Below the pieces are notes generated by a model, which was not told the DNA's origin, did no database searches, and worked only from the letters and a program-made list of their open reading frames with translations. DNA of 64,000 nt, taken from assembly GCA_965207305.1 (NCBI GenBank), contig CBDBMB010000002.1:303344-367343 (forward strand), given 5' to 3'. The position numbers and the translations under genes are program-made. This document shows, in pieces, positions 3,064-44,492 of the stretch; within the stretch, counting starts at the first letter, position 1, and every line of letters begins with the position of its first letter. This stretch comes from Dehalococcoidia bacterium (GTDB taxonomy: Bacteria > Chloroflexota > Dehalococcoidia > Lucifugimonadales > JAGWBF01).

Positions 3064-4470
3064 ATGGCCGGCGCCGACACCAACCTGTGCTACCTGACCA
3101 TAGGCGAGGCCGGCGGCCTGATACGCCGGGGCGAGCTGTCCCCCGTCGAGCTGACGCGGGCGTTCCTGGACCGCATCGAGGCGGTGGACGGGAGGCTCCA
3201 CGCCTTCATCACGGTCCTGGCCGACGAGGCCCTGGCCGAGGCCCGCGCGGCGGAGGCGGAGATCCTCAAGGGTGAGTACCGGGGCGCCCTGCACGGCATC
3301 CCCCTGGCCCACAAGGACCTGTACGATACGGCCGGCGTGCGCACCACCTCGGGGTCCCGGGTGGATGAGCACCGGGTCCCCTCCGAGGACTCTACCGTCA
3401 TCGCCCGATACCGTGAGGCCGGGAGCGTGCTGCTGGGCAAGCTCAGCATGCACGAGTTCGCCCTGGGCGGCCCGGACTTCACCACCCCCTTCCAGCCGGC
3501 CCGGAACCCCTGGAACCTGGAGCACATCCCCGGCGGCTCCAGCAGCGGCTCCGGCGCCGCGGTGGCCGCCGGGCTCTGCATGGGCGCCCTGGGCTCCTGC
3601 ACCGGCGGCTCCATACGGGGCCCCGCGTTCCTGTGCGGCACCGTGGGGCTCAAGGCCACCTACGGCCGCGTGAGCCGGGCCGGCGTCGTGACCCTGAGCT
3701 GGTCCCAGGACCACTGCGGCCCCTTGACCTGGACCGTGGAGGACACCGCCCACATGCTCCAGGCCATCGCGGGCCACGACCCCAGGGACCCCACCAGCAG
3801 CCGGGCCCCGGTGCCAGACTACTCCCTCTCTCTGCGGGAGGACGTCCGCGGGCTGGTGGTCGGAGTCCCCAGGGACTTCTTCTTCTCCCCGAACCCGGCG
3901 GTCAGCGGGGAGGTCCAGTCCATCGTCGAGAAGGTCCTGGTGGACCTGGAGGGCCTGGGGGCCAACCTGACGGAGGTGAGCATTCCCAGCCTGGAGTACG
4001 AGCGGGGAGTCAACTCGGTCATCATGCTCTCAGAGGCCTTCGCCTTCCATGAGAAGAACCTGCAGACGCGGGCCCACGACTTCGGCGAGATGGTGCGGGA
4101 ACGGTTCCGCCTGGGCGGTCTTCTGAACGCCAGCGACTACGTGCAGGCCCAACGGGTCCGCCAGGTGATAAAGCGGGAGACGGCCGAGGTGATGAAGGGG
4201 GTGGACGTGCTGGTGACCCCCACCATGACCCAGCCGGCGGCCAGGATGGACGTCTACGACCCGGCGTCTACCATGCATGGCCCCAGTTTCACCGCGCCGT
4301 TTAACATAACCGGACTTCCGGCCATGTCGGTGCCCGCGGGGTTCACGGCCGACGGCCTGCCCGTGGGGATGCAGGTGGTGGGCAAGCCCTTCGACGAGCC
4401 CACGGTGTTGCGGGTGGGCCACACCTACGAGCGGCACGCCCGCTGGTACGAGCGACGCCCGCCGATCTAG
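3064..4470 (+). CDS. amidase-signature family amidase (GatA/AtzE-like)
   Basis: The ORF track gives 3049..4470 (TTG start); the ATG at 3064 has a GGGGG RBS. It has the AS motif GGSSSGSGAAVAAG and KDLYDTAG (catalytic Lys region). Confidence 0.9.
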   Translation: MAGADTNLCYLTIGEAGGLIRRGELSPVELTRAFLDRIEAVDGRLHAFITVLADEALAEARAAEAEILKGEYRGALHGIPLAHKDLYDTAGVRTTSGSRVDEHRVPSEDSTVIARYREAGSVLLGKLSMHEFALGGPDFTTPFQPARNPWNLEHIPGGSSSGSGAAVAAGLCMGALGSCTGGSIRGPAFLCGTVGLKATYGRVSRAGVVTLSWSQDHCGPLTWTVEDTAHMLQAIAGHDPRDPTSSRAPVPDYSLSLREDVRGLVVGVPRDFFFSPNPAVSGEVQSIVEKVLVDLEGLGANLTEVSIPSLEYERGVNSVIMLSEAFAFHEKNLQTRAHDFGEMVRERFRLGGLLNASDYVQAQRVRQVIKRETAEVMKGVDVLVTPTMTQPAARMDVYDPASTMHGPSFTAPFNITGLPAMSVPAGFTADGLPVGMQVVGKPFDEPTVLRVGHTYERHARWYERRPPI

Positions 4471-4504
4471 GACCGGCACTCTCCCAACTCACAAGGAGGG
4501 ACCC

Positions 4505-5380
4505 ATGAGACCCACCACAAGGCTGCGGCAGATGCTCCGGGAGCCCGGCATCATAGTGGCGCCGGGGGCCTACGATTGCCTCACGGCCAAGATCATCGAG
4601 CGGGTGGGGTTTCCCGCCATATACATGACCGGCAGCGGCACCGCCGCCTCCCGGGTCGGCGAGGCCGACCTGGGCATGGCGACCATGACGGAGATGGTCG
4701 CCAACGCCGCCAACATCGTCGCCAGGGTGGACCTGCCCGTCATCGCCGACGCCGATACCGGCTACGGAGGCATCCTCAACATCCACCGGACGGTGCGCCA
4801 GTACGAGCGGGCGGGGGTGGCCGCCATCCACATCGAGGACCAGGACGTCCCCAAGCGGTGCGGGCACCTGGACGACAAGGTGGTGATCCCGGCCGATGAC
4901 ATGTGCCAGAAGATCCGCGCCGCGGTGGACTCCCGCACCGACGATGACTTCGTGATCATCGTGCGCACCGACGCCCTGGCCGTCACCGGGCTGGAGGACA
5001 CCCTGAACCGCTGCCAGGAGTACGTGAAGGCGGGCGCCGACGTGTTGTTCATCGAGGCCATCCGCACGCCCGAGGAGATCGACCGGGTCACCCGCGAGTT
5101 CGACGTCCCCCTGCTGTACAACTTCGTGGAGAAGGGGAAGTCGCCGCTGATCCCAGCCCCCGAGCTGGCGGAGCTGGGGTTCAAGATCGTCATCTACCCC
5201 GGCGCCGCCATGTTCACCGTCTGCAAGGTCATCGGCGGTGTGATGGAGCACCTGAAGACCCACGGCACCACTGAGGCGCTGCTGGACGACATGGTGAGCC
5301 CGGTAGAGTTCTTCGAGACCGTGGGCCTCTCGGAGATGCTGGCCTTCGACGCCCGGTTCGCCCCCGTGCCGCAGCCGTAG
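4505..5380 (+). CDS. isocitrate lyase / PEP mutase family enzyme (methylisocitrate lyase / carboxyvinyl-carboxyphosphonate phosphorylmutase-like)
   Basis: 291 aa; AAGGAGGG RBS. Motifs IYMTGSG, ADADTGYG and IEDQDVPKRCGH are typical of the family. Confidence 0.85.
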   Translation: MRPTTRLRQMLREPGIIVAPGAYDCLTAKIIERVGFPAIYMTGSGTAASRVGEADLGMATMTEMVANAANIVARVDLPVIADADTGYGGILNIHRTVRQYERAGVAAIHIEDQDVPKRCGHLDDKVVIPADDMCQKIRAAVDSRTDDDFVIIVRTDALAVTGLEDTLNRCQEYVKAGADVLFIEAIRTPEEIDRVTREFDVPLLYNFVEKGKSPLIPAPELAELGFKIVIYPGAAMFTVCKVIGGVMEHLKTHGTTEALLDDMVSPVEFFETVGLSEMLAFDARFAPVPQP

Positions 5381-5415
5381 GGCCGTTTCCCAGTCAGGCG
5401 CTCAGCCGGGTTCGA

Positions 5416-6117
5416 TTACCTGGATCGTGGTGCGGCTGGAGTTGGAGAACAGCCATGCCCCGCTAGCAGGGCCTTTAGCCGGGGCAGCAGTCTGGGTATG
5501 TACTCGTGGATGACATCCCAGGTGGCGTCGTCGTCAATGGACCAGCACCGGTGAATGACGTCGTTACCCGTCTTTGCGATTCTGCCCCACGGGATTTGGG
5601 AGTCCGCCTCGCGCACCGCCTTCGGGACGTTGGTGGCCGCTTTGCCCATGAGGGTGAGATTGTGCATGACGGCGTAACGGGTGCGCATGTCGGTCACGAA
5701 CGCGGCCTGGTCGAGTCCGGACGTGTACTCCAACACCCTTCCGCAGGACTCGATCATATCCTCGACGTAGAAACGCCACTCCCGGGTTGGCTGCGAACCC
5801 GTGTCAGGCATGGGCATCCCCTCTTTTGAGAGGTCGATAGCCTCCGCTTGGACGTAGGGGCGCACCTCCTGGCGCAGGGTTTTCTCGGTAGCCAGGTCAA
5901 CCGGGTGGCCCAGCAAGTCTTCGAGATAGGCCTGCGCCTCGAACAAGCGCTTCGACCCCATAGGGCCGTCGAAGCGGGCCAGTATGTCAACGTCGCTGGC
6001 TTGTGTTGCCTGGTCGCGGGCGTAGGAGCCGAAGAGCGCCAGGTGGGTAACGCCGAACCGCTGGGCCAGAGTATCCTTGTGCGCCCGGAGGAGGGTCAGC
6101 ACCTCATCCCTGGTCAT
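5416..6117 (-). CDS. fused nucleotidyltransferase (MNT/MntA-like) and DUF86 HEPN (HepT-like) protein
   Basis: Single 233-aa frame. The N-terminal part has LALFGSYARDQATQASDVDIL (GSxxR...DxD NTase motif). The C-terminal part has the DUF86 pattern YAVMHNLTLMGKAA...IPWGRIAKTGNDVIHRCW. An internal AGAGGGG plus ATG sits at 5811-5817. Confidence 0.75.
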   Translation of the reverse strand: MTRDEVLTLLRAHKDTLAQRFGVTHLALFGSYARDQATQASDVDILARFDGPMGSKRLFEAQAYLEDLLGHPVDLATEKTLRQEVRPYVQAEAIDLSKEGMPMPDTGSQPTREWRFYVEDMIESCGRVLEYTSGLDQAAFVTDMRTRYAVMHNLTLMGKAATNVPKAVREADSQIPWGRIAKTGNDVIHRCWSIDDDATWDVIHEYIPRLLPRLKALLAGHGCSPTPAAPRSR

Positions 6118-6145
6118 TGCCGCGCCCCTCTGCCCCCGGCCCCGC

Positions 6146-7579
6146 CTACCCCTGGTCGACCAGGGCCGGGCGGCGGCCCCGGGCGGGGGACACGGCCTCG
6201 TAAGCGCGGCCCACCCGGAACAGGGTCGTCTCGTCGAAGGGGCGGCCGATGATCTGCAGCCCTATGGGCAGGCCGGCCCCGCTGAAGCCGCAGGGTACAC
6301 TGATGGCCGGGAAGCCGGTGGCGTTGCTGGGCTGGGTGCACCGGGACACGATACCCGAGCCCGGGCCCCGGACGGGTTGCTCCACGTCGCCGATGCGCAG
6401 GGTCTCCTGGTCGATGCGGTGGGCCGGGTTGGGCATGGTGGGCGTTGCGATGAAGTCGACCTGCTGCAGCACCCGTGCGTGCTCCTCCTTCAGCAGGCGT
6501 TGGACCTTGAGGGCCTTGGCGTAGTGGGTGCCGAGGACGAACTGGCCCCCCAACGTGCGGTACAGGACGGTGGGGCCGTAGTCCTCCCGGTTGGACTTCA
6601 GGTAGGGCTCGTGGGCGACCATGCTGTCCGCCATGAAGGAGAAGCGCATGGCGCCATGGTACCTGAGCGAGGGTATGCTCACCTCCACCGGCTCCGCTCC
6701 CAGCTCCTCCAGCGCGGCGATGGCCCGGCGCACGGTCTGCTCCACCTCCGGGTCCAGCAGGTCGAAGTAGTAGTTGGACGGGATGCCCATCTTCAGGCCC
6801 TTGACTCCCCTTTCCAGGTCCGCGGTGAAGTCGGGCACCGGGACGGGCACCGTGCTGGGCTCCAGCGGGTCGTAGCCCGCCATGGCCTGGAGCACCAGGG
6901 CGCTGTCCTCCACCGAGCGCGTCAGGGGCCCGATGTGGTCGCCGTTGAAGCTGGTGACCAGCAGGCCCCGCTGGCTGACGCGGCCGAAGGTCTGCTTGAG
7001 CCCGACTATGCCGCAGTAGGAGCCCGGGCCCCTCACGGAGCCCCCCAGGTCGGTGCCCAGGGAGGCGAAGGTCACGCAGGCCGCCGCGTTGGCACCGCCG
7101 CCGCCGCTGGAGCCCCCGGCCACGTGGTCCAGGTTCCACGGGTTGTGGACCGCCCCGTAGTGGGCGTTGATGGACGTGGGCCCGGCGGCGAACTCCTCCA
7201 GGTTCTCCTTGCCCAGGACTATCGCCCCGGCGTCCTTGCATAGCCGCACCACGTGGGCGTCCTCGTCGGGCACGTGGTCGGCCAGCACCTTGGAGCCCAC
7301 GGTGGTGCGGATGCCGCCGGTGGCGATGTTGTCCTTGATGCCGATGGGAATGCCGTGCAGCGGCCCCCGGTAGTCGCCCCGGGCCAGGGCCTCCTCGGCC
7401 TCCCTGGCCTGCCTGCGCGCGTCGTCGTGGAGGATGGTGATGAAGGAGTTGATGGTCGGCTGGAGCCGGTCGGCCATGGCCAGCGCGGCCTCGGTGACCT
7501 CCACGGGGGAGACCTCCCCGGCCCTGATCCTCGGGGCAAGCTCGGATATGGTGAGCCTGGCAAGCTGCGTGTCTGCCAT
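6146..7579 (-). CDS. amidase-signature family amidase (GatA/AtzE-like), second copy
   Basis: 477 aa with GIPIGIKDNI and GGSSGGGGANAAA motifs. Its start overlaps the stop of the upstream small ORF by 1 nt (TGATG). Confidence 0.9.
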   Translation of the reverse strand: MADTQLARLTISELAPRIRAGEVSPVEVTEAALAMADRLQPTINSFITILHDDARRQAREAEEALARGDYRGPLHGIPIGIKDNIATGGIRTTVGSKVLADHVPDEDAHVVRLCKDAGAIVLGKENLEEFAAGPTSINAHYGAVHNPWNLDHVAGGSSGGGGANAAACVTFASLGTDLGGSVRGPGSYCGIVGLKQTFGRVSQRGLLVTSFNGDHIGPLTRSVEDSALVLQAMAGYDPLEPSTVPVPVPDFTADLERGVKGLKMGIPSNYYFDLLDPEVEQTVRRAIAALEELGAEPVEVSIPSLRYHGAMRFSFMADSMVAHEPYLKSNREDYGPTVLYRTLGGQFVLGTHYAKALKVQRLLKEEHARVLQQVDFIATPTMPNPAHRIDQETLRIGDVEQPVRGPGSGIVSRCTQPSNATGFPAISVPCGFSGAGLPIGLQIIGRPFDETTLFRVGRAYEAVSPARGRRPALVDQG

Positions 7580-7773
7580 CAGGACTCTCCCCCTTCCTGG
7601 GCCCTCAGCAGCCGGCCCGAGAGCACGGCGGACAGGTCCAGGTCTCCCAGGGCCTCCACCTCCCGCGTGTAGGCGTCCACCTCCAGCCGCACCAGGGCCA
7701 GCTCTTCGTCGGTCAGCTCGAAGCCCTGGTAGTCTCGTATCATCGCCCTGAGGGTCTCGTCAGTGATGTGCAT
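7579..7773 (-). CDS. GatC/AtzG-like small protein, second copy
   Basis: 64 aa; GGGAGG lies 8 nt before the ATG. ITDETLRAMIRDYQGFELTDEELALVRLEVDAYTREVEALGDLDLSAV parallels the GatC N-terminal half. Confidence 0.7.
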   Translation of the reverse strand: MHITDETLRAMIRDYQGFELTDEELALVRLEVDAYTREVEALGDLDLSAVLSGRLLRAQEGGES

Positions 7774-18651: not shown

Positions 18652-20712
18652 ATGGGCGGCGGCCCCGGACGGTTGGGCACGACGACGCGGCTCGGGGCCC
18701 TGGCGGCGGGCGCGGCGTACCTGCTTGCCGCCGCGGCCGTGCTGCTTGCCGCCTGCTCGGATTTGGGACGCACCCCGGCTGGCGAGACGCCGCCCCCCGC
18801 GCCGCCCGAGGTCTCATCCCCCAGCCCGGAGGCATGGCCTTCTCCCACCATCGTACCCGGCGATGCGCCCACGGTCGGCGGGGCGTCGACGCCCGCGCCC
18901 ACCTCCCCCGGCCCCGGCCAGCCGCGGACGCCCTCCGCCGGCCGGCCGTCCACGCCCTCCGTCGACCCCACCGGCGCCCCAGCCACCTCCCGGGTCTTCC
19001 CCGCCCCCCCGGAGAGGGACCTATACCATCTGACGGCATCTCTGGTGCTCAAGAGCAGCGACCCCATACCCCGGGTGGTGAACGTCGAGCCCGTCAGCTA
19101 TGCCGAGGGACGGGTGGACACCTTCTGGCTGACGGACCTCAGCGACGTCAGCAACTACCAGAGCGAGGCCACACTGGCCCTGGTGAGCCCCCACGCCTAT
19201 TGGTACGTGGAGGAGGGGCTCCGGGTGTCCCGGGACGATCTGGAGAAAGCGGCAGAGGCCTTCGAGGGGCAGATATACCCCCGGGTCACCGCCGCGTTCG
19301 GCACCGAGTGGGTGCCCGGGGTGGACAACGACCCCCACCTCACCATCCTTCACGCCCGGCTGAGCGGGGCCGGTGGCTACTTCTCCTCCGTGAACCAGTA
19401 CCCGACGCTGGTCCGTGAGCATAGCAACCAGCGCGAGATGATATACATGTCGTCGGGCCTAAGGGTCGGCTCCCGCCAGTACCTGGCCGTCCTGGCCCAC
19501 GAGCTGCAGCACGCCATCCACTGGAACGCCGACCCCTCCGAGGAGACGTGGGTGAACGAGGGCCTGGCGGAGGTGGCGACAGCCGTCGCCGGATACGAGA
19601 CCCTGAGCCCCCGGGCCTTCCTCCAGTCCCCCGGCGGCTCGCTGGTCAACTGGCCTTTGGACGGTTTCAACAGCGTCCACTACGGCGCGGGCAACCTGTT
19701 CTTCGAGTACCTGACGGGCCACTACGGGACGATGGAGGACATCGTCCTTCTGGTGACGGAGCCGGCGGACGGCATACGGGGCGTGGACGCCTACCTGTCC
19801 AGGCTGGGCTACGACGTCACCTTTCGAGACGTCTTTGGCGACTGGACCGTGGCCAACTACCTGGATGCTCCCAGCGGGCCCTACGGCTACCCGGACAGAG
19901 AGGTGAGCGTCCACGCCGACGGGCGGATGGACGAGCCCGGGATACGGACGTCATCCATCGACCAGTACTCGGCCGAGTACACGGCCATTGACATAATCCA
20001 GGGCGACGTGGTGGTCCGCTTCCAGGGAGATGCGGCAGTGCCCCTGGTACCGGACCCGCCCGAGGGTGCCGGCTGCTGGTGGAGCAACCGCGGCGACTCC
20101 ATCACCTCCACGTTGACCCGGGAGGTGGACCTGACCGGGGCCGGGGACGCCATGCTACGGTACGACGTCTGGTTCGACATTGAGGAGGACTGGGACTACG
20201 GCTACCTGCAGGTCTCCACCGACGGCGGCGAGACCTGGGACATCGTCGCCACCCCCGCCTCCTCGACGCACGACCCCGTGGGCAACAGCTACGGCCCCGG
20301 CTACACAGGCCGGAGCGACGGCTGGATCGACCAGCAGGTGGACCTGGGGGCCTACTCCGGGGAAGCCGTGCTGGTGCGGTTCAGCCACGTGACCGACGAC
20401 GCCATCAACGGCCTGGGGTTCTGCGTCTCCGGCCTGTCCCTCGGGGGCGGACCGCTGCTGGACAGGGACGGCGGTTGGGAGGCCGACGGCTTCGCCTGGG
20501 TCGACGGCCCCATCCCCCAGGAGTACGTCGTGCGGGTCATAGAGGTGGGCGAGGAGGTCCGCGTGCGGGAGATTCCCCTGGATGGGGACAACCGAGGCGA
20601 TCTCACGGTCACCGGCCTGAAGGACCTGGACGATCTGGTGGTGGTGGTCGCGGCCCTGGCCCCGGGGACGCTGACGCCGGCTTCCTACACGCTGACAGTC
20701 GCCCGGCCGTAG
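18652..20712 (+). CDS. putative lipoprotein zinc metalloprotease (HEXXH...E gluzincin-like) with C-terminal beta-rich domain
   Basis: Signal peptide with an LLAAC lipobox, then a Pro/Ser/Thr-rich linker. HELQHAIH is followed by NEGLAE. The C-terminal YLQVSTDGGETWDIV segment resembles InhA/M6-type accessory domains. Confidence 0.6.
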   Translation: MGGGPGRLGTTTRLGALAAGAAYLLAAAAVLLAACSDLGRTPAGETPPPAPPEVSSPSPEAWPSPTIVPGDAPTVGGASTPAPTSPGPGQPRTPSAGRPSTPSVDPTGAPATSRVFPAPPERDLYHLTASLVLKSSDPIPRVVNVEPVSYAEGRVDTFWLTDLSDVSNYQSEATLALVSPHAYWYVEEGLRVSRDDLEKAAEAFEGQIYPRVTAAFGTEWVPGVDNDPHLTILHARLSGAGGYFSSVNQYPTLVREHSNQREMIYMSSGLRVGSRQYLAVLAHELQHAIHWNADPSEETWVNEGLAEVATAVAGYETLSPRAFLQSPGGSLVNWPLDGFNSVHYGAGNLFFEYLTGHYGTMEDIVLLVTEPADGIRGVDAYLSRLGYDVTFRDVFGDWTVANYLDAPSGPYGYPDREVSVHADGRMDEPGIRTSSIDQYSAEYTAIDIIQGDVVVRFQGDAAVPLVPDPPEGAGCWWSNRGDSITSTLTREVDLTGAGDAMLRYDVWFDIEEDWDYGYLQVSTDGGETWDIVATPASSTHDPVGNSYGPGYTGRSDGWIDQQVDLGAYSGEAVLVRFSHVTDDAINGLGFCVSGLSLGGGPLLDRDGGWEADGFAWVDGPIPQEYVVRVIEVGEEVRVREIPLDGDNRGDLTVTGLKDLDDLVVVVAALAPGTLTPASYTLTVARP

Positions 20713-20863: not shown

Positions 20864-21448
20864 TCAGCCTACGTGCTTGGAGAGCATGGCCCGTATCTCG
20901 GCCACCGAGTGACGCATCCACTCGGCGAACCGCTCCTGGTTCAGGGGGCGGGCCAGGACGCGGACCCGCTGCTCGTCGGCGTCGGGGTTCTCCCGCTTCA
21001 CGCGCTCCTGGATCTCGTCCATCTCCCGGTCGGCCACGGCGGGGCGCTCTATCCAGTGGTCTATGTACTCGTGGTCCCCGGTGTAGAACACCACCGCCGG
21101 TATGGAGGCGTACTTTCCCTCTTTGAGGAACTCGTTCATGATGTCCATGTGGGAGTCCCTGGGGAATACCCGCATCTCGAACCCGCCCGCCTCGGCGATG
21201 CGGGCGGCCACGGGCATGCCCCGGTACACGTCGGGGCACCAGTCCTCGCCGATGACCATCATCTTGGCCGGGCCGCCCGCCTGGCCCGCGGCTTGTCGGA
21301 AGAACTCCGCGTCGTCCTCGTCGAGGTGGAAGGTGTCGTACAGCTTCTCGAACCAGCTCTTGTTGAGCTTGATCTGGTCCACGTATTCCTGGTAGGTGAA
21401 CCCGCTGGCGAACCTCTCCGGAGTCACCACGCTAGTCTCTCTGGCCAT
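20864..21448 (-). CDS. thioredoxin-fold protein (single-Cys WCxD type)
   Basis: The ATG at 21448 follows AGAGGAGGA. It has the EDWCPDV motif and is 194 aa. The track ORF extends to 21490. Confidence 0.7.
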   Translation of the reverse strand: MARETSVVTPERFASGFTYQEYVDQIKLNKSWFEKLYDTFHLDEDDAEFFRQAAGQAGGPAKMMVIGEDWCPDVYRGMPVAARIAEAGGFEMRVFPRDSHMDIMNEFLKEGKYASIPAVVFYTGDHEYIDHWIERPAVADREMDEIQERVKRENPDADEQRVRVLARPLNQERFAEWMRHSVAEIRAMLSKHVG

Positions 21449-21520
21449 GTCTCCTCCTCTTTGGATGGACTGGGCGGTGGACTTTGACACAAAGTCGTGT
21501 CTTGGATGGCCTTGCGGCCG

Positions 21521-22486
21521 TCAGGGGCGGGCGCCGAACCCCTCGGTGGTGCTGTACCTCTCCCTGACCATCTGCTCGGGCAGGTACTTCTCCTCCAGCT
21601 TCTGGTAGTGCTGGAAGTCGCCCATGGTGTGGTGGTTCTCGGTGGGGTGGCCCCTGGTCAGGCGCTCCAGACGTAGCTGGGCCTGCTCCTGGTTGTCCGC
21701 CAGGTCCTTGAGGAAGTCCCACTCGGCGTACATGGCCGCGTGGATGGCCCCCAGGCTTATGAAGATGAACCTGTACCCCATGTCGGCCAGGTCCTTGAAA
21801 GATGGCGGGTCCTCCAGCACCGACCAGCTCAGGGAGGAGGAGTAGTTGAAGGCCATGGGGGTGCCGGGGAAGGAGCCCTGTATCTCCCGGGCGAACACCT
21901 CGGCGTCGGCCAGGTCCGTGCCCGGGAACTCGGACCACACCATATCGGCCCCGGCGTCGGCATAGCGCTTGCCCCGGTCGATGGCCTCCTCCAGGCTGCC
22001 GCCCACCGCGCTGACGGCGTCGGTGCGGGCGATTATGAAGAAGTCGGGGTCGGACTTGGCCTCGACGGCGGCCCTTATCTTCAGGACCGCCTCCTCTACG
22101 GGTATGCAGTACTTCCCAGCCAGGTGGCCGCAGCGCTTGGGGAGCCGCTGGTCCTCGATATGTATGCCGGCCACGCCCGTCCGCTCGTACTCCTGCACCG
22201 TCCGCTGGGTGATCAGGGCGTTGCCGTAGCCATCGTCGGCGTCGGAGATGACCGGGAGGTCCGTGGCCGAGACCATGTTCTTGGCCCAGCCCGTCATCTC
22301 GGTCATGGTGGGAAACCCCAGGTCGGCCCTGCCCAGGTGGCCCAGCGCCGACGAGAGCCCGCTCATGTATACGCACTTGAGCCCCACGGCCTGGGCTATC
22401 TTGGCCTGCAGGGGCGTGAACATGCCCGTGGTGAACACGTACGGCTCCGAGGCCAGAAGCCTGCGAAACTCGGCGCTCTTGCTCAT
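21521..22486 (-). CDS. isocitrate lyase / PEP mutase family enzyme, second copy
   Basis: The ATG at 22486 follows GAGGAGGG. Motifs: VYMSGLS, SDADDGYG, IEDQRLPKRCGH. Confidence 0.85.
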   Translation of the reverse strand: MSKSAEFRRLLASEPYVFTTGMFTPLQAKIAQAVGLKCVYMSGLSSALGHLGRADLGFPTMTEMTGWAKNMVSATDLPVISDADDGYGNALITQRTVQEYERTGVAGIHIEDQRLPKRCGHLAGKYCIPVEEAVLKIRAAVEAKSDPDFFIIARTDAVSAVGGSLEEAIDRGKRYADAGADMVWSEFPGTDLADAEVFAREIQGSFPGTPMAFNYSSSLSWSVLEDPPSFKDLADMGYRFIFISLGAIHAAMYAEWDFLKDLADNQEQAQLRLERLTRGHPTENHHTMGDFQHYQKLEEKYLPEQMVRERYSTTEGFGARP

Positions 22487-22562
22487 AGTCCCGGTCCCTC
22501 CTCGTTGGTCGTTGCCCGTGCCCTCGAGTCCCCGGACGGCCACGCCGCCCCTAGGCCAGCGC

Positions 22563-22775
22563 TCACCCCACCTCGCCCTCGAAGCCTATCTCCACGCGGC
22601 CGTCGGGATGGATGATGGTCGGCGCCGAGTCCGAGTACTCCAGGAGCTGGTCCAGCCACTCCTGGTTGTCGTCCACCTGGCGCTCCTCGTATTCGATCCC
22701 CTGGAGAGCCCACGACTCTCGCAGCTTGATGCAGGTGGGTCAGGTGGCCAGTGTGTATACGATGGGCTTGTCCAC
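22563..22775 (-). CDS. glutaredoxin/NrdH-like redox protein with in-frame TGA (candidate selenocysteine, U-P-T-C motif)
   Basis: GTG at 22775 lies 5 nt after GGAGG. Translation is MDKPIVYTLAT-[TGA 22742-22740]-PTCIKLRESWALQGIEYEERQVDDNQEWLDQLLEYSDSAPTIIHPDGRVEIGFEGEVG, ending at the stop at 22563. G/C third-position bias holds on both sides of the TGA. The gene is not in the ORF track because the TGA splits it. Confidence 0.65.
22701..22724 (-). other. candidate bacterial SECIS hairpin
   Basis: The mRNA can fold as CUG-C-GAGAG / UCGUGGG / CUCUC-CAG (8 bp, one bulge, G-containing 7-nt loop). It starts 16 nt after the UGA. Confidence 0.4.
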
Positions 22776-23238
22776 GGCGGCCTCCGGAAGGGGTGCAGGC
22801 TGGCGGCGGCGGGAGCGCCCCTCGAGGCCCCCCGGCTCGTAACGCATGGTAGCACGGGGCTACGGGCGTGGCAAGTGAGCCGGCGCTCCGGCCGGCCACG
22901 GGTGAAGAGGCGGCTATAGCCCGACCAGCTCGATGCGGTTTTTCCGCTCAGGCCTGTCGAGGGTGGCGTCCGGGCCGGCACGTTGTGACAAGCATCGGGC
23001 GAGATGGGCCCTGTCTTAGTAAAGGTCCTCTCGCTTGAGGCTCAGGCCCTTGGGCCACCTGGCTGTGGGGTGGACGGGCCACACCTCGTCGAGGCTGGGC
23101 TTGGGAGCGGGTTCCGGCTGCTCCTGCTCCTTATCCATCGGTGTCTGGTCTTGCGTCATCTCGACCCTATTGCAGTCAGTTCGTACAGGCCAGTCGAGCA
23201 TGTCGATCGAGGAGGGAAGCTTGAGCCACCGCCCGATC

Positions 23239-27734: not shown

Positions 27735-28655
27735 TCAGGACGTCGGCGCTGGGGCCGGGTTGCCGATGCCCCGGGTGAGGTAGTCCCGGGCCAGGGGCGC
27801 CAGGACGTCCAGGGACCACCGGCCGTCATTGTATATGCAGCGTTCCGGCCTGGGCTGGGACATCAGGGCCACGTCGCCCCCATAGACCAAAAAGGTCTGG
27901 CCGTTGACGTTGGAGGCGTAGTCGCTGGCCAGGTACACCACGAAAGGCGCCACGTCGTCTGGGTCGGCGGTGCCCAGGTCCTCTTCGCCGGCGATGCCGG
28001 CCACGCCGCCCTGGGCCCTGATGGCGCTGGCCGAGGCCGGGATGTTGCCGATCATGCGCGTCTGCGCCCTGGGCGCGATGGAGTTGGCGGTCACGCCGTA
28101 GCGTCCCATGTCCCGGGCCACGACCTTGGTGAACCCGGCTATGCCCGACTTGGCGGCGCCGTAGTTGGCCTGGCCCGAGTTGCCTACCAACCCCGATTCG
28201 GAGGTGAAGGTGATGACGCGTCCCGACCGCTGCTGGCGGAACAGGATGCAGGCGTGCTTGACCACCGTGAAGGTGCCCTTCAGGTGCACGGCGATGACGT
28301 CGTCCCACTCCTGCTCGGTCATGTTGAACACCATGCGGTCCCGCAGTATGCCGTGGCAGGTCACGACGACGTCCAGCTTGCCATAGGCGTCGATGGCGGC
28401 CTGGACCGCCGCCTCGCCCCCCTCCATGGTCGCCACCGACTCGTGGCAGGCGACGGCGGAGCCGCCGGCCTCGGTTATCTCCCGGACCACCTGGTCCGCC
28501 GGGGTGGCGTCGGTCCCCGTACCGTCCACGTTCACGCCCGGGTCGACTACCACGACCCTGGCCCCCTGGGCGGCCATGAGCATCGCCACTCCCCGGCCGA
28601 TGCCCCGTCCGGCGCCGGTCACCACGGCCACCTTGTCTTTCACCACGTCGGGCAT
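27735..28655 (-). CDS. SDR oxidoreductase (MFE-2 / 3-hydroxyacyl-CoA dehydrogenase-like), copy B
   Basis: The ATG at 28655 follows GAGGAG. Motifs: TGAGRGIGRG and NYGAAKSG. Confidence 0.85.
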   Translation of the reverse strand: MPDVVKDKVAVVTGAGRGIGRGVAMLMAAQGARVVVVDPGVNVDGTGTDATPADQVVREITEAGGSAVACHESVATMEGGEAAVQAAIDAYGKLDVVVTCHGILRDRMVFNMTEQEWDDVIAVHLKGTFTVVKHACILFRQQRSGRVITFTSESGLVGNSGQANYGAAKSGIAGFTKVVARDMGRYGVTANSIAPRAQTRMIGNIPASASAIRAQGGVAGIAGEEDLGTADPDDVAPFVVYLASDYASNVNGQTFLVYGGDVALMSQPRPERCIYNDGRWSLDVLAPLARDYLTRGIGNPAPAPTS

Positions 28656-42938: not shown

Positions 42939-44237
42939 TCACGGCCCCTCCGCGTAGGAGCCGAATGTGAAGGCGAAGACGCCGAAACGGTCGGAGTCGC
43001 TGCTGAGCATCAGGTCGTGGCCGCCGTACTCCTCCAGCCGCACCAGGTTGTACATGCGGGGCTCGTTTATCTCGAAGAACGTCCTCCCGTCGTCTTCCGA
43101 CTGCACGTGGAAGCCCCGGGCGTCCTCGGGGACCGGCTCCGAGTCCATGGTCAGGTAAACGCGGATGGGCTCGCCGCCGTCGAAGTCCGTCACCACGTTG
43201 ACGCTGGTGCCGTGGAAGCGCAGGGCTATGAAGTCCTCCAGGTTGTCCGTCTGACGCCCGTGGGTGAGGCTCTCGGCGCCTTTTATCCACGAGCCGTTCA
43301 GGTACAGGAAGTGGTTGCGGTACTCGTCGGAGGGGGTGTAGTCGTACGGCATGTCCAGGGGGGCGGAGTAGTAGTCCGGGTTGGCGATGTAGGCCCCCCG
43401 CACGGCGAAGTTCCGCACGTAGCCCGCGTACAGCTCCCTGGTCTGGCCGGTCCCGTCCCTCTGGTACGCCCGTCTGTCGGGGTCTGGCCCGGGGTCGGTG
43501 CCCGGGGCGATGGCCGACACGTCGGCGCCCGCCTCGGTGAGCAGCTCGCGGATCAGCTCCTCGGTCTCGTCGTACGCGCCCTCTCCGAAGTGGCTGTACC
43601 GGATGATGCCGTCCTTGTCTATGAGGTACTTGGCCGGCCAGGCCCGGTTGTTGAAGGCGAGCCAGGTCTCGAACTCGTTGTCCTGGACTACGGGATACTG
43701 TATGCCGTGCTCCTCGATGGACTTCTCGATGTTCCCCCTCAGCTTCTCGAACTCGAACTCGGGCGAGTGGACTCCCACGATGGTGAGCCCCAGGTCCGCG
43801 TACCGGTCGTGCCATGCCGTCAGGTAGGGCAGGGTGCGGATGCAGTTGACGCAGGTGTAGGTCCAGAAGTCGATGAGGACCACGCCGCCCCGCAGGCTTT
43901 CGATGGTGAACGGCTCCGTCTGTATCCAGCCCGAGATGCCCGCCAGCTCCGGCGCGGCGCTCCCCACCGTGCCGGGCGTCGGGGTGATGGTCGGGGGCGC
44001 GGCGTCCTCGGCCCCGGCGGTCTCCTCGGGCTCCGGGGTGTCCGTGGCCGGCGGCAGCGGGGTGGGGGTCGGCTGCGCGGTCGCCGTGGGCTCGGGCGTG
44101 TGGGTGGGTGCCGTCGTGGCCGTCGGCTCTGCCCGGGCGCATCCCGCGGCCAGGGCGGCCAGCGCCGCCAGTGCCACGATCGCCGCGGCCAGAACCGGGA
44201 TGGGTCGTCCCCAGTTAGTACAAAAAGACGGGTGCAT
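42939..44237 (-). CDS. exported thioredoxin-fold protein with DipZ-like C-terminal domain, copy 2
   Basis: The ATG at 44237 gives a leader ending ALAALAAGC, followed by a Pro/Thr-rich linker. WTYTCVNC is the redox motif. It is a paralogue of 40658..41863. Confidence 0.75.
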   Translation of the reverse strand: MHPSFCTNWGRPIPVLAAAIVALAALAALAAGCARAEPTATTAPTHTPEPTATAQPTPTPLPPATDTPEPEETAGAEDAAPPTITPTPGTVGSAAPELAGISGWIQTEPFTIESLRGGVVLIDFWTYTCVNCIRTLPYLTAWHDRYADLGLTIVGVHSPEFEFEKLRGNIEKSIEEHGIQYPVVQDNEFETWLAFNNRAWPAKYLIDKDGIIRYSHFGEGAYDETEELIRELLTEAGADVSAIAPGTDPGPDPDRRAYQRDGTGQTRELYAGYVRNFAVRGAYIANPDYYSAPLDMPYDYTPSDEYRNHFLYLNGSWIKGAESLTHGRQTDNLEDFIALRFHGTSVNVVTDFDGGEPIRVYLTMDSEPVPEDARGFHVQSEDDGRTFFEINEPRMYNLVRLEEYGGHDLMLSSDSDRFGVFAFTFGSYAEGP

Positions 44238-44492
44238 GTCGTCTCCGTGCGAGTCCGGGTGGGTGTTCGGTCCAGGGCGCCGTCGGACTAAGGATACCAC
44301 GGCGCTCTTGCCGGTCCACTAGCTACTACGCAGACCGGCCGCCCTTGTATCTCTCCCGCGCGGCCCTTGTCCCCGCCTCCGCACGGATTGCCCTGGCGTG
44401 TTGTCGCCTCCCCCCGCGCCGCGTATACTACTCCCATCGGCGGCCCGGTTGACCGAGGACCCACGACCCCACCCGGTGTGCAGGGGGAAGTC

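Follow-up and report, generated by a model that had tools for sequence, protein, structure and literature searches.

Does a glutaredoxin-like reading frame that runs into TGA at the place of its first active-site cysteine encode a selenoprotein, and if so where does that protein end? The question is raised by the minus strand of a 64,000-nucleotide (nt) stretch of contig CBDBMB010000002.1 from a Dehalococcoidia bacterium (assembly GCA_965207305.1, positions 303,344 to 367,343, hereafter the window). A sequence-only reading of the window had proposed selenocysteine (Sec, U) at the attacking Cys of a glutaredoxin (Grx)/NrdH-like protein of about 70 residues, with a hairpin resembling a bacterial Sec insertion sequence (SECIS) downstream and the end of the gene at 22563. 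The Sec at the attacking Cys with its downstream hairpin was retained in our analysis, while a second predicted Sec codon, the tail behind it, the true stop and a second hairpin had been missed. We consider it very likely that 22775-22551 is a functional gene for a 74-residue, minimal-fold Grx-like oxidoreductase with two selenocysteines (M/V-DKPIVYTLAT-U-PTCIKLRESWALQGIEYEERQVDDNQEWLDQLLEYSDSAPTIIHPDGRVEIGFEGEVG-U-ALA), and likely that both TGAs encode Sec in the lineage of the window.

The frame is found as it had been described, with a GTG start at 22775, GGAGG 5 nt upstream and the sequence VDKPIVYTLAT-TGA-PTCIKLRESWALQGIEYEERQVDDNQEWLDQLLEYSDSAPTIIHPDGRVEIGFEGEVG-TGA (22565-22563), the first TGA (22742-22740) falling on the first Cys of CxxC. 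The start position coincides with ATG or GTG in the two closest relatives, L006 and L007, whose proteins are 96% and 93% identical to that of the window. G or C occupies the third codon position at a frequency of 0.8 over the 10 codons before the first TGA and 0.9 over the 30 codons after it, in agreement with the bias reported on both sides, and the list of open reading frames (ORFs) over the region does hold only Arg/Pro-rich shadow ORFs. With U replaced by Cys the product passes the Pfam Glutaredoxin family (PF00462, 32.3 bits, gathering score 22.9) and displays the expected Grx features, the U/CPTC motif opening helix 1 and TVP/APT preceding strand 3. The NrdH half of the earlier assignment was rejected, as the NrdH-redoxin model TIGR02194 scores 18.6 bits against a cutoff of 85.75 and the neighbours are Thioredoxin_9 and phosphoenolpyruvate (PEP)-mutase genes with no nrd genes. 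The end at 22563 also had to be revised. The second TGA is followed by GCG CTG GCC TAG, that is Ala-Leu-Ala and a stop, which places Sec71 four residues from the end of the 74-residue product, and comparative data show that the GUALA tail is translated and that the stop is TAG 22553-22551.

To these data scans of species-representative genomes and metagenomes contributed 160 further loci, giving a total of 165 loci and 130 unique proteins, each translated in frame. The taxonomically named (genome-derived) loci belong almost all to Dehalococcoidia, SAR202 or other Chloroflexota. In each of the four homologous loci inspected first, the C-terminal TGA was followed by three sense codons and a stop (GUEIG in L001, GUHIE in L002 and GUYIA in L005, compared with GUALA in the window), and L001 also had TGA at the first-Cys column. 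Scored as (Cys1, Cys2, C-terminal), 86 of the 130 unique proteins are C-C-U, 18 are U-S-U, 15 are C-C-C, 10 are U-C-U, which is the window's type, and one is C-S-U. Homologues thus align either TGA (28 unique proteins, as UxxC or UxxS) or Cys (102, encoded by TGC/TGT within CPTC/CPAC) at the first column, while at the C-terminal column 115/130 have TGA and 15/130 have Cys. As judged from the alignment, both TGAs are classical Sec/Cys pairs. On a neighbour-joining tree built with the three columns masked, minimum parsimony requires 6 Sec/Cys switches at Cys1, 4 Sec/Cys switches at the C-terminal column and 8 Cys/Ser switches at Cys2; the window falls within a "GUALA" clade whose members all carry TGA at Cys1.

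On sequence evidence the C-terminal site is actually the better supported of the two predicted Sec sites, and it is here that a protein with a single Sec has to be weighed, in which TGA 22565-22563 is a genuine stop, only the first TGA is read as Sec and the hairpin downstream serves in termination, mRNA stability or regulation. Every gene caller ends the proteins at the Gly (70 amino acids), GC-rich hairpins are common behind stop codons, and the fold of the 3′ region taken alone is not distinctive; however, 15 unique homologues carry Cys at the second-TGA column and run on through the same three residues before they stop (…MISCYIA, …MISCNIG), from which it follows that the C-terminal tail is translated. 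The tail has a fixed length, with exactly three codons between the U or C and the stop in 127/130 proteins and two codons in the other 3. Its second residue is Ile, Leu or Val and its third Gly or Ala, with every synonymous codon in use, and conservation of amino acids through all synonymous codons means that selection acts on the peptide.

The hairpin that begins directly after the true stop provides a second line of evidence on the same question. In isolation it folds with -12.6 kcal/mol (z = -2.8), and its GUG loop begins 22 nt after the U of the second UGA. Throughout the Sec forms of the family a GC-rich stem starts at the stop codon or one to two bases inside it, and carries a small loop starting with G (e.g. 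GGC, GUC, GGA, GUG or CGUGN) whose first base lies 21 nt (median) beyond the U of UGA. Mean minimum free energy over nt 12-48 is -12.2 kcal/mol in Sec forms and -5.7 kcal/mol in Cys forms (Mann-Whitney p = 2e-7), and a strong simple hairpin was scored for 92% of Sec forms as opposed to 4% of Cys forms, the frequency in shuffles being 16%, although these contrasts between Sec and Cys forms, like the percentages given below for the first hairpin, ignore phylogenetic relatedness. The percentages were obtained by anchoring each sequence individually, with shuffles and Cys forms treated identically. Pair counts were taken from a gap-free alignment of a single clade and not from a MAFFT alignment of all 3′ regions, in which sub-lineages are off by about 2 columns at the hairpin. 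In this sub-clade (45 distinct sequences) 91% of cells are paired, compared with 26-47% in slid registers, and 8/8 pairs show compensatory double changes; 39 cells hold such double changes against 10.8 ± 2.6 in shuffles, none of 500 shuffles being as high. The stems are diverse, with 85 distinct ones among 119 sequences. A role as intrinsic terminator was rejected, as the hairpin has no U-run behind it, only 4/119 family members have UUUU within 10 nt after the stem and a terminator search of 22300-23000 returned no terminator-like site. Since, in addition, the best NCBIfam match of the window protein is a Uxx-star selenoprotein family with the C-terminal U at model position 68 of 70, we regard a protein ending at the second TGA as very improbable. 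One all-Cys form, L021, has a hairpin (GGUGGC-AUA-GCCACC) directly after its TAG stop, where most other Cys forms have none; this hairpin may be left over from a SECIS whose G-containing loop has been lost.

The hairpin that had been proposed after the first TGA (22724-22701) is present. It folds in isolation with -11.3 kcal/mol (z = -2.6), and its GUG loop begins 29 nt after the U of the first UGA. Spacing of the bSECISearch type places a stem-loop with a small G-containing apical loop about 16-37 nt after UGA, and the GUG loops of both window hairpins, which have a C-GUG-G triloop in common, fall within it. The hairpin is retained in orthologues: strong hairpins follow the first site in 61% of Sec forms compared with 19% of Cys forms (shuffles, 16%), and among the 21 members of the window's clade 87% of cells are paired versus 30-55% in slid registers. 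The clade shares xxAGUC-GUG-GACUxx, with lineage-specific compensations that include GAGAGUC/GGCUCUC, GGGAGUC/GACUCUC, GCGAGUC/GACUCGC and GCCAGUC/GACUGGC. Independent Cys-to-Sec switches elsewhere in the family are accompanied by different hairpins in the same place, as would be expected from separate SECIS origins. Because the element sits in conserved coding sequence, the support for this first hairpin, though real, is weaker than for the 3′ one.

Components of the Sec machinery lie next to the gene in a number of relatives. In two lineages, represented by L042/L106 (SAR202) and by L163, the gene is preceded on its own strand by a tRNA-Sec at a distance of 47-70 nt; ARAGORN called these tRNAs with anticodon TCA, and they match Rfam RF01852 with 68.9 and 77.6 bits (gathering score 47). 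In L042, a SAR202 metagenome-assembled genome (MAG), a thioredoxin gene (PF00085), the tRNA-Sec, the Grx-like U-x-x-x-stop gene and a Thioredoxin_9 gene form a compact same-strand redox cluster (3479-4876, plus strand). In L011, whose Grx-like protein is 77% identical to that of the window, a SelD homologue (6006-7064, minus strand) is found 1.8 kb away, and a TGA at its Cys17 column (7016-7014) causes the ORF lister to shorten it to 317 amino acids. TGA, read as Sec, at the Cys17 column is the known selenoprotein form of the selenophosphate synthetase SelD. In BSepDB Dehalococcoidia MAGs have 46-49 selenoproteins, placing them among the most selenoprotein-rich bacteria (PMC13326102).

These linkages also bear on the possibility that the TGAs are not Sec codons, and either specify Cys, Trp or Gly, be it by an altered code, by a suppressor tRNA or by near-cognate read-through, or represent sequencing or assembly errors for TGC/TGT. 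TGA is one base away from TGC/TGT, and codes in which TGA is a sense codon exist in some uncultured bacteria. However, the same TGAs recur in dozens of independent assemblies and metagenomes, they align with Cys columns only, Sec-specific hairpins accompany them, and bona fide tRNA-Sec and selenoprotein-type SelD are linked to the gene in relatives. The stops of the window's coding-like ORFs (≥150 codons, n = 38) comprise 27 TAG, 11 TGA and no TAA, and because TGA terminates 11 of the 38 the genetic code is standard, although a majority of TAG is unusual even at 68% GC. We therefore hold a non-Sec reading of the TGAs to be extremely improbable. Recoding of UGA to Cys was also considered by way of PMC5424206, which concerns SepRS/SepCysS and is not relevant.

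Elsewhere in the window further hidden Sec sites were considered and rejected. TGA 38121, between two coding-like ORFs, serves as a normal stop ahead of a FabF-like gene. The sequence APAPTS-TGA-Gly-Pro-stop (27735-27737, minus strand) ends a coding-like ORF of 369 codons; the hairpin behind it is weak (score 10), and we do not regard this TGA as a Sec candidate. Among the other window genes that end in TGA none combines a short tail with a hairpin.

Besides the neglect of relatedness in the Sec/Cys contrasts, a number of points weigh against two selenocysteines being inserted here. Folded as a single sequence, the wider region of 53-66 nt around the first hairpin is no better than shuffles (z = -0.28, +1.29), so that in DNA of 68% GC this hairpin alone is not beyond chance and its support comes from the relatives. 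The same holds for the 3′ region of 41-81 nt, which is not distinctive as a single sequence (81 nt z = -0.09). Covariation in the first hairpin is modest, with compensatory double changes at 2/10 pairs and a count not above shuffles, and its conservation could derive in part from the conserved E/Q-S-W-T peptide. Neither hairpin was matched by Rfam at the gathering threshold or at a permissive E-value, although Rfam appears to be without an applicable bacterial SECIS model. The redox relay proposed below derives from a model of a Cys homologue and from secondary-structure (DSSP) strings, not from distances or experiments. Finally, no tRNA, tRNA-Sec, selA, selB or selD was found in the 64-kb window by tRNA search, Rfam, Pfam on 20 genes or tblastn, the tblastn probes being approximate sequences of E. 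coli SelD and SelB; that the source organism decodes Sec is something we infer from its relatives.

This last point would also fit a decaying relic, in a genome that has lost its Sec machinery and in which the first TGA now ends translation after 11 residues, and a decayed SelB-like fragment near the gene copy of L014 indicates that sel genes can decay in the group. The Grx-like gene of L014 is itself intact however, and its selB fragment may be the remnant of a duplicate. The window gene has no frameshifts or extra stops, and in comparison with L006 and L007 its ratio of nonsynonymous to synonymous substitution rates (dN/dS) is 0.04-0.14 at dS 0.11-0.18 with both TGAs, both hairpins, ribosome binding site and start intact. 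The same layout is present in all 21 distinct members of the clade. Frame decay was looked for in close relatives and none was seen; codons 13-70, which follow the first TGA, instead show purifying selection, with dN/dS of 0.04-0.26 between the window and twelve clade members, and these values exclude a pseudogene for the clade. A relic in the window itself is on this evidence very improbable. The L014 fragment (7577-7717, minus strand) corresponds to a SelB-like N-terminal GTPase (…GTASHIYHGKS…, then stops), and adjoins a gene (5300-7462, minus strand) for a 720-amino-acid Pro/Thr-rich HExxH protein homologous to the window ORF 18652-20712 (plus strand); it may be what is left of a former sel gene neighbourhood.

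The features of the locus are collected in Table 1. The promoter-like site, a candidate promoter by consensus match alone, lies about 70 nt upstream of the start codon and is the sole such site in 22300-23000 (1 found, 0.1 expected). Downstream of the Grx-like gene, on the same strand and within 700 nt, a Thioredoxin_9 homologue is present in 149/158 loci, with the motif DWCGDV in 81 and DWCPDV in 45, and this monothiol protein is likely to be the redox partner of the Grx-like protein. The intervening PEP-mutase/isocitrate lyase (ICL)-family gene is an insertion found only in the window and in L006-L008, judged from the shared 3′ flank. A second paralogue of this family is encoded in the window at 4310-5380 (plus strand), and a 459-amino-acid protein with AhpC/TSA (peroxiredoxin-like) and Thioredoxin_10 domains at 42939-44318 (minus strand), the latter with no in-frame TGA.

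Table 1 Features of the predicted two-Sec gene and its surroundings in the window
Feature	Position	Strand	Description
Promoter-like site	22846..22874	minus	TTGCCA-17 nt-TACCAT, TG before the -10 hexamer (extended -10); consensus match
Shine-Dalgarno GGAGG	22781..22785	minus	5-nt spacer, then GTG start 22775-22773
Predicted Grx-like selenoprotein coding sequence (CDS)	22551..22775	minus	74 codons and stop; sequence, Pfam, 165 loci in the same layout, dN/dS
First in-frame TGA (predicted Sec12)	22740..22742	minus	Attacking position of the U-P-T-C redox motif
SECIS-like hairpin 1	22701..22724	minus	Within the CDS; lower stem CUG/CAG, bulged C, upper stem GAGAGUC/GGCUCUC (22720-22714 with 22710-22704), loop GUG (22713-22711)
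Second in-frame TGA (predicted Sec71)	22563..22565	minus	C-terminal motif G-U-A-L-A
True stop TAG	22551..22553	minus	Read from the sequence
SECIS-like hairpin 2	22534..22550	minus	3′ untranslated region (3′ UTR), directly after TAG; stem GGGCGGC (22550-22544), loop GUG (22543-22541), stem GCCGUCC (22540-22534)
PEP-mutase/ICL-family gene	21521-22486	minus	Between the Grx-like gene and the Thioredoxin_9 gene
Thioredoxin_9 (PF14595) gene	20864..21490	minus	Single-Cys motif DWCPDV; Pfam 7.8e-26; start codon uncertain

To examine the fold we utilized an AlphaFold2 model of the all-Cys homologue P0011 (74 amino acids, alignment of 45 sequences), which reached a mean confidence (pLDDT) of 91.8 and displays a minimal beta1-alpha1-beta2-alpha2-beta3-beta4 glutaredoxin fold that lacks the usual C-terminal helix. 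Its best PDB matches by fold and sequence are cGrx1 (7c10/7c12), the A. fulgidus Grx (3ic4), BC3987, mycoredoxin and NrdH. DSSP assigns two-residue beta-bridges at 50-51, the TV that precedes the cis-Pro, and at 71-72, residue 71 being the Cys/Sec position. In Grx-glutathione complexes the TV edge before the cis-Pro binds the cysteine of glutathione. We take this to mean that the tail would lie folded against the protein next to the active site.

For the two-Sec gene we propose that translation would start at GTG 22775 and that at UGA 22742 SelB with Sec-tRNA(Sec), recruited by the hairpin at 22724-22701, would insert Sec12, so that the active site would read U-P-T-C and resemble that of Grx1, a native selenoprotein of Clostridium oremlandii. 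The hairpin in the 3′ UTR (22550-22534) would direct the insertion of Sec71 at UGA 22565, followed by Ala-Leu-Ala and termination at TAG 22553. The fixed 12 nt of three codons and stop would place this hairpin at the spacing needed by a bacterial SECIS, and the three-codon tail is probably fixed by that demand. The flexible G-U-x-x-x tail could then fold onto the TVP/cis-Pro edge next to the active site, where Sec71 would be joined to residue 12 by a diselenide bond (in Cys forms by a selenenylsulfide bond) and would serve for resolving or relay, much as the C-terminal GCUG tail does in mammalian thioredoxin reductase. The resulting two-Sec thiol/selenol oxidoreductase would work together with the co-located monothiol Thioredoxin_9 protein. 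The U-S-U forms, such as L012, are without any Cys, which leaves a Sec12-Sec71 diselenide as the only possible internal redox pair in them. Taken further, the family could represent a natural diselenide oxidoreductase, based on the Sec12-Sec71 couple in U-S-U forms and, in U-C-U forms such as the window's, on the same diselenide in competition with a Sec12-Cys15 selenenylsulfide, which together with the obligately linked Thioredoxin_9 protein would constitute a very low-potential selenium relay, specific to Dehalococcoidia/SAR202 and with a SECIS wholly in the 3′ UTR. We put this forward tentatively, as possible rather than probable.

The general concept of a Grx-like protein with two selenocysteines, one of them close to the C-terminus, is known from earlier publications, and the family described here extends known biology. 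UXX-star Grx-like (seleno)proteins are reviewed in PMC13188914, which cites Zhang & Gladyshev 2008 and Haft & Tolstoy 2025. Models of these proteins include the NF041212 subfamily, family 1 (NF041114, 'distant Grx-like protein 1', with a UxxT motif and 2 Sec), family 2 (NF041211) and family 3 (NF047338), and the review also covers family 2 and a HUGP/GUXX-star fusion (PMC13188914). The best NCBIfam match of the window protein is NF041212, "Uxx-star family glutaredoxin-like (seleno)protein" (E = 1.7e-11), with residues 5-71 aligned to model positions 2-68, which by these coordinates would place U71 at the third position from the end. Common to both are a Grx fold of about 70 amino acids, a Sec a few residues before the true stop and a SECIS that necessarily lies beyond the CDS, while the U-S-U forms resemble family 1 in having a second Sec at the N-terminal redox motif and no resolving Cys. 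The window protein nevertheless scores below every cutoff (44.2/66 for NF041212, 31.8/100 for NF041211, 29.2/72 for NF041114 and 21.3/97 for NF047338), as do its relatives against NF041212 (41.9-48.0 bits, cutoff 66), which fall still further short of the family models. The tail comprises U and three residues here (127/130) but U and two in UXX-star proteins, the first motif is UPTC, UxxS or CPxC and not UxxT, and the clade belongs to Dehalococcoidia/SAR202 with a conserved Thioredoxin_9 partner. The homologues with two-residue tails, L051 (G-U-A-I-stop) and L156 and L160 (G-C-F-I-stop), have the UXX-star layout of the described families, and by sequence these three appear to link the Dehalococcoidia clade to them.

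Selenoproteins of the Grx and Grx-like UxxC classes of Zhang & Gladyshev date back in the literature to the mid-2000s (PMC2398784; PMC13188914), the Grx-like UxxC family having been counted in ocean metagenomes (PMC2398784), and in cGrx1 of Clostridium (Alkaliphilus) oremlandii Sec occurs natively, at a U(C)PXC site (PMC7642778). cGrx1 shares with the family a small Grx domain and Sec at the attacking position of U-P-x-C, and is the top PDB match both in structure (TM-score 0.76-0.78, root mean square deviation 1.4-1.9 Å) and in sequence (E = 5.6e-9). Identity to the family is however only about 31-32%, and cGrx1 is tied to MsrA reduction and glutathione whereas the family pairs with Thioredoxin_9. 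cGrx1 is not known to have a C-terminal Sec tail. In mammalian thioredoxin reductase a flexible C-terminal Gly-Cys-Sec-Gly tail shuttles electrons from a buried dithiol centre to the substrate. The likeness is one of functional analogy, comprising a near-C-terminal Sec on a flexible tail and a SECIS located past the stop, as too little CDS is left after the UGA; thioredoxin reductase is an unrelated flavoprotein fold with a SECIS and machinery of eukaryotic type. In the family described here the tail would pair with the CxxC/UxxC/UxxS site of the same small domain, as part of the relay that we propose.

The earlier expectation that annotation pipelines would pass over the gene proved correct, in that homologues with TGA at Cys1 are called as fragments of 43-53 amino acids and others end at 70. 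None of the 129 database homologues retrieved is named a selenoprotein, the labels being "glutaredoxin" or "hypothetical", with most ending at 70 amino acids. All 129 either end at the C-terminal TGA or are fragments, indicating a Dehalococcoidia/SAR202 selenoprotein family that has been missed or mis-ended; although widespread in Dehalococcoidia, it is not recognised as a selenoprotein in the public annotations retrieved. The deep ocean, groundwater and sediments are rich in Dehalococcoidia/SAR202 bacteria, and a dedicated model (G-[UC]-x-[ILV]-[AGE]-stop together with a 3′ hairpin) would correct hundreds of records and give better selenoproteome counts. Textbooks place bacterial SECIS elements within coding regions, a placement contradicted by the predicted 3′ UTR SECIS of this family. 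More than 100 natural, covarying bacterial SECIS that start at or inside the true stop at a fixed 12-nt spacing would provide a data set for minimal SECIS geometry. A possible intramolecular diselenide, a rare bond in nature, is suggested by the repeated switching of the active site from Cys to Sec, the loss of the resolving Cys and the invariant Sec at the C-terminus.

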